IMG/VR virus record: IMGVR_UViG_3300031867_000009
Span: 32,001 to 96,000 of that record
Direction: 5' to 3' (one strand)
Source: a virus
Lineage: Duplodnaviria > Caudoviricetes
Length of the DNA: 64,000 nt
The notes beneath the pieces are model-generated. The model saw only the letters and a list, made by a program, of their open reading frames with translations. It did not search any database and was not told the DNA's origin. This document shows, one piece after another, positions 57,381 through 62,337 of this stretch. Each line of letters opens with the position of its first letter. Positions within the stretch are counted from its first letter, which is position 1. A program made the position numbers and the translations under genes.

Positions 57381-57544
57381 TATTCTCAGTTATAGTAGCT
57401 AGTGTATTTGTCTTTGGCGGCCTCGTCTGTTATGCAAGTTGTTGGGCGGCCGGCCGCGCGGATGAACGAAGCGAACGATATTATTATCGCAAGAAATTAG
57501 AAAAAGAAGTGAAAAAGCAGAGTGAAAATTTGAAAAATAAATAA
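57377..57544 (+). CDS. small membrane protein (not in ORF track)
   Basis: MIFSVIVASVFVFGGLVCYASCWAAGRADERS..., ATGA-coupled. Confidence 0.55.
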   Translation: MIFSVIVASVFVFGGLVCYASCWAAGRADERSERYYYRKKLEKEVKKQSENLKNK

Positions 57545-57558
57545 ATTTTCTGTATAAT
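57530..57558 (+). promoter_or_regulatory. sigmaA-type promoter
   Basis: aaatTTGAAA-17-TATAAT. Confidence 0.7.
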
Positions 57559-57581
57559 ATATATAGAAAGTTGAGAGAAAA

Positions 57582-57755
57582 ATGAATATCGACGAACTAT
57601 ACGAACAAGCAATGTATCAAGAACATCTTTACTCCATTTGTCAACATCAATGTGATGGTATGAGTAATTGCAAGATGTTCGCGGAGGGTAATGACATAGG
57701 TTGTCTTAAAGCCTATCACTATTATCTCAATTTAATTAAAAATTTACAAACTTAA
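57582..57755 (+). CDS. small Cys-rich protein (not in ORF track)
   Basis: 57 aa MNIDELYEQ..C.HQC....C........C. Confidence 0.5.
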   Translation: MNIDELYEQAMYQEHLYSICQHQCDGMSNCKMFAEGNDIGCLKAYHYYLNLIKNLQT

Positions 57756-57758
57756 AAT

Positions 57759-57787
57759 TTGACGAAATTAAAAAATTCTGCTATAAT
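57759..57787 (+). promoter_or_regulatory. sigmaA-type promoter of the ncRNA operon
   Basis: aaatTTGACG-17-TATAAT with extended TG; no plus-strand ORF of 60 aa or more for 1.27 kb downstream. Confidence 0.85.
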
Positions 57788-57793
57788 TATATT

Positions 57794-57896
57794 ACAAAGT
57801 GAGATGAGAATTAATTTTCTGATTTGGGAAATACATTCACAGGGTGGTGGTCTCTTACTTTCTTTCCTTTCTACCACCACCCTTCCTTACAAGCGT
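57794..57896 (+). ncRNA. candidate sRNA: GC stem with 21-nt pyrimidine anti-SD loop
   Basis: agggtggtggt/accaccaccct stem, loop ctcttactttctttcctttct; bounded by promoter and ribozyme 1. Confidence 0.6.
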
Positions 57897-57978
57897 GGCA
57901 TCATGTAAGTGCCTCCCCGTGGCGATGCTGGAGATATGGGTTTTACTCCGTGGAGACTACCCTTGAGCTAAACTTACA
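57897..57978 (+). ncRNA. HDV-like self-cleaving ribozyme 1 (with P4)
   Basis: P1 ggcatc/gatgct, P2 tgtaagt/acttaca, P3 gcc/ggc, L3 tccccgt, GG for P1.1, P4 gggt..accc, J4/2 gCtaa. Confidence 0.85.
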
Positions 57979-58271
57979 GGCTACCAGGTGAGCAAATGTT
58001 CTGAAAGTCTTATTGGAAAGGATTTGCGGTTAGCTGACCTTAAAGCGACTAGTCAATGGTTGAAGACTTGGATGTGCGGCACCGGCCCCTAAAAGCGGAG
58101 ATACCATATTCTTGGTTTATGAATAGTCAATATAGACCTAAGCTTTGATAAAGCCGTTCAGCTTGCGAAAGGGTTAAGGGTAAGCCGGTTCTAACACACA
58201 TCGAAGGTCGTAGGGAGTATGTGTGAGGAGTGTATGCGTCCCTTAAGGAGTGACGTCCAACGCAGTTTTAT
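57979..58271 (+). ncRNA. unassigned structured RNA (~290 nt)
   Basis: stems aagtctt/aagactt, accggc/gccggt with ccct/aggg, acacat/atgtgt; no ORF; lies between ribozymes 1 and 2. Confidence 0.6.
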
Positions 58272-58324
58272 GGCACCAAGATAGACGCCTTCTCGCGGCG
58301 GTGCTGATTTCGACTAAGTCTATC
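58272..58324 (+). ncRNA. minimal HDV-like (theta-type) ribozyme 2
   Basis: P1 ggcacc/ggtgct, P2 gatagac/gtctatc, P3 gcc/ggc, L3 ttctcgc, no P4, J4/2 aCtaa. Confidence 0.9.
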
Positions 58325-58975
58325 CGAATAATAAGAACTCAGTGTAGATGCACGAAACCAGTGTGCTGAGACACAGGCCGAAAGAGTCAGAGCAACGAAG
58401 CAAGGATACTTGTGGATAGCTGCTGTGCTGTTAGGGCGACCGAAGCAGTGTAGAGCGGTGAGCCGCCAAACTCAAGGTGTGGTGCATTTATTATCGCAAT
58501 CAAAGGCAGCATGTGAGTCGGAGGAGTAATAGAAGCGACGATTAAGAGTCGTCGCTGAATCCGAGTTAGGTATAGGTGTGGCAACTTATACACACCTCGG
58601 AAATGCCAACAATCTTCTTTGCCGTGAAGCGGAGAAATCCGTGTATAAGACTTGCGTGTCGCGTGCGAGTAGCCCAGAGGCAAGACTCAGATAGAGTATG
58701 ACAAAAGCAAGGATGCAGGAAAATCCTTTTATTGCCGTAAGGTGGGTGGAAGTTAGGGGTAGTCATTCCCCTCTAGGATTTGGCGAGAGCTGGGGCATAT
58801 TAGGTTAGGGTCGCTCCCTAGTCTTCGGATATGTCTCCCTAGTGGCTGAATATGGTTGAAGATAGTATGTGTAGGGTGAAAGCTCCTTATTGTTCGTAAA
58901 TATCTAAAGCGAATAGAACCGCATAATAGTTCTATCCAGTGGTGACGGGACCACAGATAATTTCCCGTCATATAT
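58325..58975 (+). ncRNA. large structured RNA (~650 nt; ROOL/GOLLD size class, family unconfirmed)
   Basis: 5' cgaataataag pairs with cttattgttcg (58886-58896); internal hairpins gcgacga/tcgtcgc, agggg/cccct, taggg/cccta, tgacggga/tcccgtca; GC-rich, no plus-strand ORF. Confidence 0.7.
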
Positions 58976-59027
58976 GACACCATTGGGGTTGCCTTCTCGT
59001 GGCGGTGTCGTTTAAAACTAAAACCCT
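58976..59027 (+). ncRNA. minimal HDV-like (theta-type) ribozyme 3
   Basis: P1 gacacc/ggtgtc, P2 ggggtt/aaccct, P3 gcc/ggc, L3 ttctcgt, no P4, J4/2 aCtaa. Confidence 0.85.
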
Positions 59028-59064
59028 TGTTTTTTATTATATAAGAAAAGGAGAGTTATAGGCG

Positions 59065-59355
59065 ATGATAATTTCAAGTGAGATTACAGGAAAAACATAC
59101 AAGACAGTAGAAGAGTGCCTTGCAGCAGAGAAGAAATTTGTAGAAGAAAAAGAAGCAAAAGAGAAAGCAGCAAAAGAACTTGAAGCAAAGAAAGATGAGG
59201 CTTATAAGAAGGCTATCGCAGCTTGTGATGAGTATTTGAAGCTGTGCGGCGTTGAAGTTGAATTTGGCGACCACGGTTATACTATGAAATATCATAGTGA
59301 TGGTAGTCTGGCTGATGCAATTTTTGAGGATATTCTTAATACAATGCTGAAGTAG
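59065..59355 (+). CDS. hypothetical protein
   Basis: SEITGKTY.TVEECL.AE pattern; AAGGAG SD. Confidence 0.75.
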   Translation: MIISSEITGKTYKTVEECLAAEKKFVEEKEAKEKAAKELEAKKDEAYKKAIAACDEYLKLCGVEVEFGDHGYTMKYHSDGSLADAIFEDILNTMLK

Positions 59356-59369
59356 AAAGGAGTGAGAGA

Positions 59370-59516
59370 GTGGTTAATATTAAGACGAATAAGCTGTTGG
59401 CTTTGGAAATTAGACTTCATAATTTGAAGAGTAATGGAAGAAATAACGACTCTCCCGGAGTTATAAGAAAGATTGAAAGAGAAATAAGACAGATTAAAGT
59501 ACACGGAGAGGTTTGA
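59370..59516 (+). CDS. small basic protein (not in ORF track)
   Basis: GTG start after AAGGAG; ..RLHNLKSNGRNNDSPGVIRKIEREIR.. Confidence 0.55.
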   Translation: MVNIKTNKLLALEIRLHNLKSNGRNNDSPGVIRKIEREIRQIKVHGEV

Positions 59517-59534
59517 TACCTCTCCTTTTCTTTT
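59505..59534 (+). terminator. intrinsic terminator
   Basis: ggagaggt-ttgat-acctctcc + tttt. Confidence 0.7.
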
Positions 59535-59545
59535 GGAGGATATAT

Positions 59546-61676: not shown

Positions 61677-61707
61677 CCTGGTCAGTGCGGCGTTGCAGGA
61701 GTATAAT

Positions 61708-62337
61708 ATGGCATATATTTATAAAATCACAAACAATATAAATCAAAAGGTTTATATTGGTCAAACAATTATGACTCCTGTACAGCGATGGCAAAAGCAC
61801 AGGAGTGATGCAAAATTAAATAAACCCTATCCACTATATAGGGCTATGAATAAATATGGTATTGATAATTTTTCATTTGAAATTCTCGAAGAAGTAAAAG
61901 TTGAAGAATTAGATGAAAAAGAACGATATTATATTAATTTATATCATTCTTATATTAATTTTGAAAATAGTAATGGATACAATGCTACATTGGGTGGTAG
62001 TAAAGGTAATCATTACTTTAATCCTTGTATTAATGAAGTTATTGAATGTGCTCAATATATGACTATTAATCAATTAGCTAATCATTTTGGGGTTGGATAT
62101 GCTACAATGAAAAATTATTTACATAATTATAATATTCAACCACAAAAAGGTAGAACTGGTGGTGGAGATAAAAGTATTGCTCAAATAGATATAAATACAA
62201 ATGAAATCATTCAAATTTTTCCAAGCATTGCTGATGCTTCAAGATTTTTTGGTAAAATACCAAAAAATTCTGGCATTAGAGATGTATTAAAAGGAAAAAG
62301 AAAAACTGCTTATGGATATAAGTGGAAGTATATATAA
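61708..62337 (+). CDS. GIY-YIG homing endonuclease with NUMOD1-like C-terminus
   Basis: YIYKITN..KVYIGQT..RW..H, ERYYI, GYN...GG; FPSIADA...KTAYGYKWKY. Confidence 0.85.
   Translation: MAYIYKITNNINQKVYIGQTIMTPVQRWQKHRSDAKLNKPYPLYRAMNKYGIDNFSFEILEEVKVEELDEKERYYINLYHSYINFENSNGYNATLGGSKGNHYFNPCINEVIECAQYMTINQLANHFGVGYATMKNYLHNYNIQPQKGRTGGGDKSIAQIDINTNEIIQIFPSIADASRFFGKIPKNSGIRDVLKGKRKTAYGYKWKYI

Follow-up and report, generated by a model that had tools for sequence, protein, structure and literature searches.

Three HDV-like self-cleaving ribozymes probably punctuate the transcript of a phage ROOL operon

What does a phage produce from a promoter-led stretch that encodes no protein of appreciable length, and how would the products be separated from each other? 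The question is raised by positions 57759-59027 of a 64,000 nt window (W) that corresponds to bases 32001-96000 of a 135,306 bp IMG/VR virus record (IMGVR_UViG_3300031867_000009, rated complete by CheckV). All positions without a prefix refer to this window, while L-numbers (L028, L115 and so on) are labels of the viral and metagenome loci with which it was compared. An initial annotation had proposed that ribozymes similar to that of hepatitis delta virus (HDV-like) cut one promoter-driven transcript at three places into RNAs other than tRNAs. Our analysis identifies the largest of these RNAs as ROOL, and we consider it probable that the stretch is a phage ROOL operon, the primary transcript of which is punctuated by three HDV-like self-cleaving ribozymes.

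The three folds are found on the plus strand at 57897-57978 (Rz1), 58272-58324 (Rz2) and 58976-59027 (Rz3). Each begins at a G preceded by a U, and the nested double-pseudoknot order P1, P2, P3, P3', P1', P1.1, (P4), P2' fits all of them. In Rz1, the helices P1 (GGCAUC/GAUGCU), P2 (UGUAAGU/ACUUACA) and P3 (GCC/GGC) are combined with L3 UCCCCGU, J4/2 CUAA and a full P4 domain of 38 nt. Rz2 (P1 GGCACC/GGUGCU, P2 GAUAGAC/GUCUAUC, P3 GCC/GGC, L3 UUCUCGC, J4/2 CUAA) and Rz3 (P1 GACACC/GGUGUC, J1/2 AUU, P2 GGGGUU/AACCCU, P3 GCC/GGC, L3 UUCUCGU, J4/2 CUAA) are minimal forms in which an 8 nt linker takes the place of P4. The predicted cuts are U57896/G57897, U58271/G58272 and U58975/G58976, and the catalytic cytosines are C57968, C58314 and C59018. 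The initial annotation had read these features correctly: a descriptor search confirms complete folds at 57897, 58272 and 58976, and the 6 bp P1 starting from G after U, the GCC/GGC P3, the UYCYCGY L3, the CUAA J4/2 and the positions of the three cytosines are seen in each.

The descriptor requires P1, P2, P3, L3 and C-N-A-A. It has exactly three matches in the entire 135 kb genome, and these are Rz1, Rz2 and Rz3. Decoy descriptors with A, G or U in the place of the catalytic cytosine have no match in the genome, and the full descriptor has none in 30 Markov shuffles. The three folds are thus real and specific. A more tolerant descriptor gave decoy matches that are re-parses of true ribozymes or of tRNA T-arms, and the strict version was used together with a test based on the core alone. 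The 13 nt core GCCTYCYCGYGGC occurs three times in the window, against 0.06 occurrences expected. Collecting all sequence-only matches to the core from about 1 Mb of related DNA yielded 39 distinct cores. A perfect 6 bp P1 is present in 38 of them and a complete fold in 36, while sliding the partner strand by 3-12 nt leaves just 0-3 of the 39 paired.

The fold also appears to be under selection, because its helices covary around a catalytic C and an L3 core that do not vary. Alignment A2 contains 19 minimal HDV-like members, Rz2 among them, and the catalytic C is invariant in all 19. Paired cells make up 96.9% of this alignment compared with 33-49% in slid structures. The covariation of P1 and P2 claimed earlier is borne out in relatives: changes on both sides occur in 13 of the 17 pairs, and P1, P2, P3 and P1.1 are all supported (for example, P3.1 changes from G-C to A-U and P1.1 from CC/GG to UC/GA). 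The covariation score is 0.66, compared with 0.26 in shuffles, and was reached by none of 500 shuffles. Orthologues of Rz1 (L028, L029, L081, L089, L004 and L115) carry compensatory changes in P1 and P4, such as GGGU/ACCC to GGAC/GUCC in the P4 of L115. Those of Rz3 (L074, L028, L029, L081, L116, L041, L115 and L118) carry them in P1 and P2. In L028 and L029, the P1 helices show compensatory changes, for example GACACC/GGUGUC against GAUACC/GGUAUC.

Two ROOL-abutting HDV-like folds, on the minus strand of L094 and L117, have intact P1, P2 and P3 and a J4/2 that reads CGGA and CUGA, respectively, where CNAA is expected. The first lies 5' of a ROOL at 131-728 and the second 5' of a ROOL at 1463-2045. 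With such altered junctions, these two folds may be attenuated or inactive.

The RNA between Rz2 and Rz3 belongs to the ROOL family (Rfam RF03087), which was described by Weinberg et al. (2017; PMC5737381). The family model matches 58314-58904 (+) with 304.8 bits, against a gathering threshold of 99.1 (E = 4e-69), and all 574 model positions (1-574) are covered; it is the single ROOL of this phage genome. From closing helix to closing helix, the RNA extends over 58325-58891, with CGAAUAAUAAG (58325-58335) paired to CUUAUUGUUCG (58881-58891). The 3' strand of P2 of Rz2 ends at 58324, so that the spacer between ribozyme and ROOL is 0 nt. ROOL is followed by a tail with two hairpins (58903-58975, +; minimum free energy (MFE) z-score -3.21), the 3' end of which is predicted to be set by Rz3. 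Part of this tail is common to L028, and its length among relatives varies from 34 to 250 nt. The 704 nt segment 58272-58975 had been proposed as one of the products. Its predicted boundaries stand, and the RNA is not an unknown one but turns out to be Rz2 and ROOL followed by the 3' tail.

The elements of a putative single transcription unit surround these modules. A sigma-70-type promoter with an extended -10 element (TTGACG-17 nt-TGnTATAAT) is found by consensus scan at 57759-57787 (+), as had been stated; it agrees with the consensus at 11 of 12 positions, and a TG stands upstream of the -10 box. The same promoter is present without change in L028, and equivalents lie upstream of the same leader in L115, L029, L010 and L004. 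The terminator scan detected no plus-strand terminator-like site between 57787 and 59505. The first one after the promoter, an intrinsic-terminator-like hairpin with a T-run at 59505-59535 (+), is the probable end of the unit. In agreement with the earlier claim that no plus-strand open reading frame (ORF) of at least 60 amino acids is present in 57759-59027, the longest has 55. The genome carries a 29-tRNA island, and the nearest tRNA to the three folds is 4.5 kb away. No tRNA is found directly upstream of Rz1, Rz2 or Rz3, again as had been claimed. When the region was compared by BLAST with 50,697 phage records, nothing matched.

HDV-like ribozymes cleave at their own 5' edge, leaving a 2',3'-cyclic phosphate on the upstream product and a 5'-OH on the downstream product. 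From this class chemistry we infer that a transcript running from the promoter at 57759-57787 to the terminator-like hairpin near 59505 would be cut by each ribozyme at its own 5' edge while the ribozyme folds. The Rz1 cut would release a leader small RNA (sRNA) of about 100 nt that ends in ...CAAGCGU with a 2',3'-cyclic phosphate. The Rz2 cut would yield a 375 nt RNA (57897-58271) made up of Rz1, a conserved module that we call X and a spacer. The Rz3 cut would yield the 704 nt RNA, in which Rz2 precedes ROOL and the two-hairpin tail, while Rz3 itself would be kept at the 5' end of a small-protein mRNA that begins at 58976. Since HDV-like ribozymes cut at their own 5' edge, Rz2 should stay on ROOL as a 5' extension, and the 5' end of mature ROOL would bear a 5'-OH together with a compact HDV fold. 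The ribozymes would in this way free ROOL from its neighbours and allow it to accumulate and assemble independently, presumably to the benefit of the phage. As judged from the arrangement of the modules, each ribozyme is predicted to set the 5' end of the downstream module as much as the 3' end of the upstream one, because it is packed against, and retained on, the downstream module. The polycistronic precursor of three non-coding RNAs that had been envisaged is upheld as far as the non-tRNA RNAs are concerned. It is not purely non-coding, since Rz3 precedes a conserved ORF and the fourth product would be an mRNA.

To our knowledge, few natural RNAs build a closed cage, ROOL being one of them, and no description exists of its native ends or of its biogenesis. 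The only rapid amplification of cDNA ends (RACE) study of ROOL implies processing from a longer precursor: in L. salivarius, mature ROOL is 520 nt long while the promoter was mapped 225-450 nt upstream, which argues that it is processed there, and the RNA is unusually stable and abundant (PMC5643018). Electron cryo-microscopy (cryo-EM) by Kretsch et al. (2025; PMC12286853) revealed an octameric cage, using a construct that begins at the closing helix (pair 1-659). According to the part of PMC12515178 that reports the work of Ling et al., RNA cargo on the 3' end of ROOL leaves the cage undisturbed and is radially displayed, which suggests that a 3'-terminal appendage is tolerated.

Relatives of the locus were collected as 21 viral loci through a search with the neighbouring DNA ligase and as three more through the downstream ORF. 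L115, a 2.1 kb metagenome contig, has the entire layout of this operon with its three ribozymes: promoter and leader are followed by the long-P4 ribozyme and X, then by a minimal ribozyme with ROOL and its tail hairpin, and finally by a second minimal ribozyme and the ORF. The ribozyme-ROOL-ribozyme layout is repeated in five further loci (L028, L029, L041, L081 and L118). The nearest relatives, L028 and L029, have the promoter and the leader hairpin in common with W, together with an HDV-like fold abutting ROOL and another before the ORF.

The slot of Rz1 is occupied by a type-P1 twister in L028, L029 and L010. The twister-P1 matches in L010, L028, L029 and L062 score 51-56 bits (51-55 bits for the three in the slot of Rz1) against a gathering threshold of 67.2 (E from 7e-10 to 8e-11), and the conserved blocks UAA, GCC, CAAGCC, UAAA and GAG are present in all four. 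Up to U57896, the leader of W has 99% identity to that of L028. The predicted cut of the L028 twister, at U^AA 1518/1519, aligns with 57896/57897 of the window. The twister and the HDV-like ribozyme, which belong to unrelated classes, would thus cut the same phosphodiester, since the leaders align 57896 of W to 1518 of L028. The P4 domain of Rz1 follows the leader in W and lies next to ROOL in L028. Together with the layout of L115 and the covariation, this exchange of ribozyme classes supports the central proposal of the initial annotation, one promoter-driven unit with three HDV-like ribozymes.

The slot 5' of ROOL is similarly variable. It holds a minimal HDV-like fold in L003 and L004, an 82 nt tRNA-like element in L012 and L013, and this element followed by an HDV-like fold in L008. 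The tRNA-like element (L008:7115-7198, L012:1678-1759 (-), L013:2253-2335 (-), L009:9214-9296 and L015:117-198 (-)) lies 25-110 nt upstream of ROOL. It scores 51-57 bits against an Rfam transfer-messenger RNA (tmRNA) threshold of 47 and resembles the acceptor/T-arm domain of tmRNA without the mRNA part. Because tRNAs, the tRNA-like element, twisters and HDV-like folds share slots in different ROOL loci, we believe that the ribozymes stand in for tRNA punctuation in an RNA-autonomous way.

How widespread such boundaries are was surveyed with a pattern from the conserved ROOL 3' domain, which retrieved 25 viral and at least 80 metagenome stretches; with the ROOL loci of the relatives, these form 60 clusters at 90% identity. 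An HDV-like fold lies no more than 76 nt away, and mostly at 0-20 nt, at 16 of the 40 assessable 5' boundaries; a twister (by motif search) is found at two and a tRNA at seven. At the 3' side, where 52 boundaries could be assessed, a tRNA is present in 17 and an HDV-like fold in seven. Looked at from the side of the ribozymes, 36 distinct folds of the HDV-like type are complete. ROOL boundaries account for 27 of them (18 just 5' and nine just 3'), four are further upstream in a ROOL operon, four directly follow tRNAs and one is elsewhere. All nine 3' ribozymes are situated 24-81 nt before the ribosome-binding site (RBS) of the same small-ORF family, while their distance from the ROOL end varies from 34 to 250 nt. 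The tRNA-type HDV-like members found here have a 7 bp P1 and an ACC/GGU P3, unlike most ROOL-type members. Beyond this single phage, we lean towards the view that HDV-like and twister ribozymes constitute a general ROOL maturation system that is swappable with tRNA punctuation, and that the 5' HDV-like fold, found in about four of ten sampled cases, is a built-in domain of ROOL that would be displayed outside the cage.

Several points weigh against this account. The HDV-like identification depends on a descriptor written for this analysis, and as this descriptor demands pairing, the pairing statistic is partly circular, a circularity that the core-only test addresses. The Rfam HDV-type covariance models have no match in 57500-59300 even at E <= 10; covariance models of this kind cannot encode a pseudoknot, and minimal HDV-like forms are very short. 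The P1 helix of Rz3 and of its orthologues is closed by a G1-C pair and not by the usual G1-U wobble, which is present in Rz1 and Rz2; among the members of A2, the closing pair is GU in 13 and GC in six. The status of the unit as a single transcript comes solely from the consensus scans for promoter and terminator. In the majority of relatives, ROOL and the ORF are not separated by a ribozyme. In the census, nothing was detected at 15 of the 40 5' boundaries, some of which hold the tRNA-like element or a twister seen only by Rfam (L062), and neither ribozyme nor tRNA is present at 28 of the 52 3' boundaries; punctuation is therefore not obligatory. The fractions themselves derive from one sequence pattern, in a sample where phages of rumen and gut are abundant, and do not estimate frequencies in the population.

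The same boundaries can be read in other ways. Selection could act on the downstream end, the 5'-OH and the pseudoknot serving as a stabilizing or translation-modulating cap for ROOL and the mRNA, with upstream release as a by-product. The spacing agrees with such a cap: Rz2 directly adjoins the ROOL closing helix and the 5' ribozymes of relatives lie 0-20 nt from ROOL, the nine 3' ribozymes keep their 24-81 nt distance to the RBS while lying 34-250 nt from the ROOL end, and the sequence upstream of the 5' ribozyme is variable. The exchange of twister and HDV-like ribozyme nevertheless keeps the cut after a conserved leader, which points to a role of the upstream 3' end too, and the tRNAs in the same slots at other ROOL loci leave no such cap; both speak for the importance of separation as such. 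We regard this alternative as unlikely; it differs from punctuation by three ribozymes in emphasis rather than in mechanism, and the two overlap.

Circularization of the excised Rz2-ROOL-tail RNA by a host RtcB-type ligase, giving an exonuclease-proof ROOL, seems very improbable. Neither RtcB nor an Rnl2-type ligase nor a CCA-adding enzyme is encoded by the phage, ROOL is in most loci flanked by a ribozyme on just one side, or by tRNAs, and nothing in the sequence besides the closing helix of ROOL itself would bring the ends together. The idea draws on the predicted flanking cuts, which would provide the 5'-OH and 2',3'-cyclic phosphate that RtcB-type ligases use, and on the unusual stability and abundance of ROOL in L. 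salivarius (PMC5643018). We find it scarcely credible that the folds are inactive relics, or junctions of mobile or recombination modules carried along with ROOL cassettes, and have no processing role. Modules are indeed shuffled among relatives, as illustrated by the P4 domain of Rz1 beside ROOL in L028 and after the leader in W, and the altered J4/2 of two ROOL-abutting folds (CGGA in L094, CUGA in L117) possibly impairs them. Relics would however not be expected to show an invariant catalytic C and L3 core together with covarying helices, decoys with a changed C match nothing, and the positions of the folds are specific to module boundaries.

The closest published counterparts of Rz2 and Rz3 are the theta ribozymes, minimal HDV-like ribozymes of gut phages that cleave in vitro and lose this activity when the C is changed to U (Kienbeck et al., 2024; PMC10879173). 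Rz2 and Rz3 share with them the P4-less fold, a tailed-phage genome, the C-N-A-A J4/2 and the UYCNCGY L3. The defining site of theta ribozymes at a tRNA 3' end is missing for Rz1-Rz3, and Rz1, with its full P4, is not minimal. The folds described here instead lie next to ROOL itself, to an sRNA and a conserved module, and to an mRNA, and so group with the unexplained non-tRNA hits of the theta study. These hits lie in non-coding regions (526 in annotated phages and 7,704 overall), and their role was left open (PMC10879173). Our ribozymes were not found in the supplementary lists of that paper, nor their cores in the supplements of the ROOL cryo-EM paper (PMC12286853), and in both cases the lists consulted may be incomplete. 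As for ROOL itself, the RNA in this phage is a full-length, high-scoring member of RF03087 in a genome with a 29-tRNA island. It differs from published accounts of ROOL in its flanks: these accounts give tRNA neighbours and possible co-transcription and no flanking self-cleaving ribozymes (PMC5737381, PMC12286853).

Clustered hammerhead ribozymes flanking prophage genes, for which processing of a long transcript was proposed and in vitro cleavage shown, were reported by Perreault et al. (2011; PMC3088659). Here too, several same-strand self-cleaving ribozymes, seen as predicted folds, occupy successive module boundaries in one putative phage unit; in W, the three folds are distributed over four module boundaries from the promoter to the first terminator-like site. 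The ribozymes are however HDV-like and twister rather than hammerhead, and the modules are mostly non-coding RNAs, one of them large and catalogued. In the tRNA-punctuated ROOL and GOLLD arrays, the slots 5' and 3' of ROOL likewise hold cleavage-specifying elements; cleavage there depends on proteins (RNase P and RNase Z), whereas it is predicted to be RNA-autonomous here. At the 5' end of R2 retrotransposon RNA, an HDV-like ribozyme cuts the element RNA from its co-transcript and stays on as a structured 5' end. R2 differs in being a eukaryotic retroelement with a protein-coding RNA, and neither a phage nor a nanocage RNA is involved. Among the searchable papers, we found none linking ROOL with HDV-like ribozymes; those that name ROOL together with twister, or GOLLD together with self-cleaving RNAs, draw no link between them. 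The mechanism has been familiar since the work of Perreault et al. (2011), and its use at a catalogued cage-forming RNA, as well as its frequency there, appear to be new.

If the reading is correct, mature ROOL becomes predictable base by base, and in many phages it would carry an HDV fold at its 5' end. The order in which ROOL is made with other conserved modules would be fixed, and these modules (the leader sRNA, X and the small protein) thereby become candidate partners. Orphan phage HDV-like ribozymes would gain a role, including some of the unexplained non-tRNA theta ribozymes. The interchange of twister, HDV-like ribozyme and tRNA at one phosphodiester would amount to a natural experiment in which the cut matters and the cutter does not.

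The leader sRNA (57794-57896, +, about 100 nt) has a 5' end placed from the promoter and a 3' end predicted to be set by Rz1. It contains an 11 bp hairpin (57841-57883; MFE z-score -2.46) that presents a pyrimidine-rich loop. The loop UUUCCUUUCU is kept among the relatives L004, L010, L029 and L115 while the stem covaries: it is GGGUGGUGGU/ACCACCACCC in W and L115, GGGGAGAGGU/ACCUCUCCCC in L004 and GGGGCGGC/GCCGCCCC in L010.

The X module (57979-58114, +) is a conserved non-coding element of about 135 nt in W and about 115-135 nt across loci (L115:1121-1253, L117:2123-2240 (-), L094:777-904 (-)). By nhmmer, L115, L117 and L094 contain full-length homologues, and those detected in L003, L004, L067, L118, L081 and L006 are partial. 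X is always located after an upstream ribozyme of the HDV-like or twister class and before the ribozyme that abuts ROOL. Its conservation is mostly at the level of sequence, with long invariant runs (ACCAGGYGARCAAAUGU, GCUGACCUUAA, GUCAAUGGUUGAAGAC and AAAAGCGGAGAUACCA) and slight structural covariation, and it has no Rfam match. A conserved micro-ORF in X was rejected, as by eye a 1 nt indel in L094 breaks the frame. X is followed by a phage-specific spacer of about 160 nt (58115-58271, +) without an ORF of at least 40 amino acids and without a match in any compared locus or in the records of five relatives. That 57979-58271 forms one large ornate RNA was also rejected: its z-score is -0.31 against shuffles, and only the first ~135 nt are conserved. 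The 375 nt segment 57897-58271 therefore stands as a predicted product and is not a large structured RNA; it consists of Rz1, X and ~160 unconserved nucleotides. In the sister phages, the interval from the twister to the ROOL-abutting ribozyme holds a further conserved non-coding stretch, GGUUUAUUGAGGAGAAGAU...AAUAAUAUCCUCAC... (L028:1581-2014, L029:1860-2187), which is missing from W and matched nothing in Rfam; it also occurs in the 5' flank of L003.

Downstream of Rz3, a good RBS (AAAGGAGAG) and an ORF of 96 amino acids occupy 59047-59355 (+), the ORF itself spanning 59065-59355; its start codon lies 37 nt from the end of Rz3. The ORF belongs to a conserved small-protein family with the N-terminal signature MxI(I/Y)SEI(T)GK.Y.TV.EC..AE, followed by a charged, helix-like stretch, and has no Pfam or PHROG family. 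Homologues directly follow ROOL or its 3' ribozyme in 15 relatives; they are found in L003, L004, L008, L010, L012, L013, L028, L029, L041, L074, L081, L115, L116 and L118. From this constant position the protein is a candidate ROOL partner. That the ligase encoded upstream seals RNA was considered and rejected: the protein is a DNA ligase of the ordinary ATP-dependent kind (PF01068), and its gene does not keep a constant place with respect to ROOL.

At 61693-62337 (+), 2.3 kb downstream of the ROOL operon, the phage has a gene for a homing endonuclease of the GIY-YIG type (phrog_314, phrog_7168, phrog_5123), and the locus of one relative contains a group I intron (RF00028, 68.9 bits; L016:2784-3100 (-)). 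Partial matches to OLE RNA (RF01071, model positions ~436-595; 53 bits against a threshold of 50) were found at L035:10084-10167 (+) and L032:187-276 (-), an odd place within phage tRNA arrays that also carry ROOL. In the tRNA arrays around ROOL of L032, L035, L042, L045, L048 and L053, ARAGORN calls 'tRNA-Pyl' genes with a CUA anticodon. These are probably amber-suppressor tRNAs and would hint at stop-codon recoding in those phages. Finally, one 402 kb contig (L042/L045) carries two ROOL genes.

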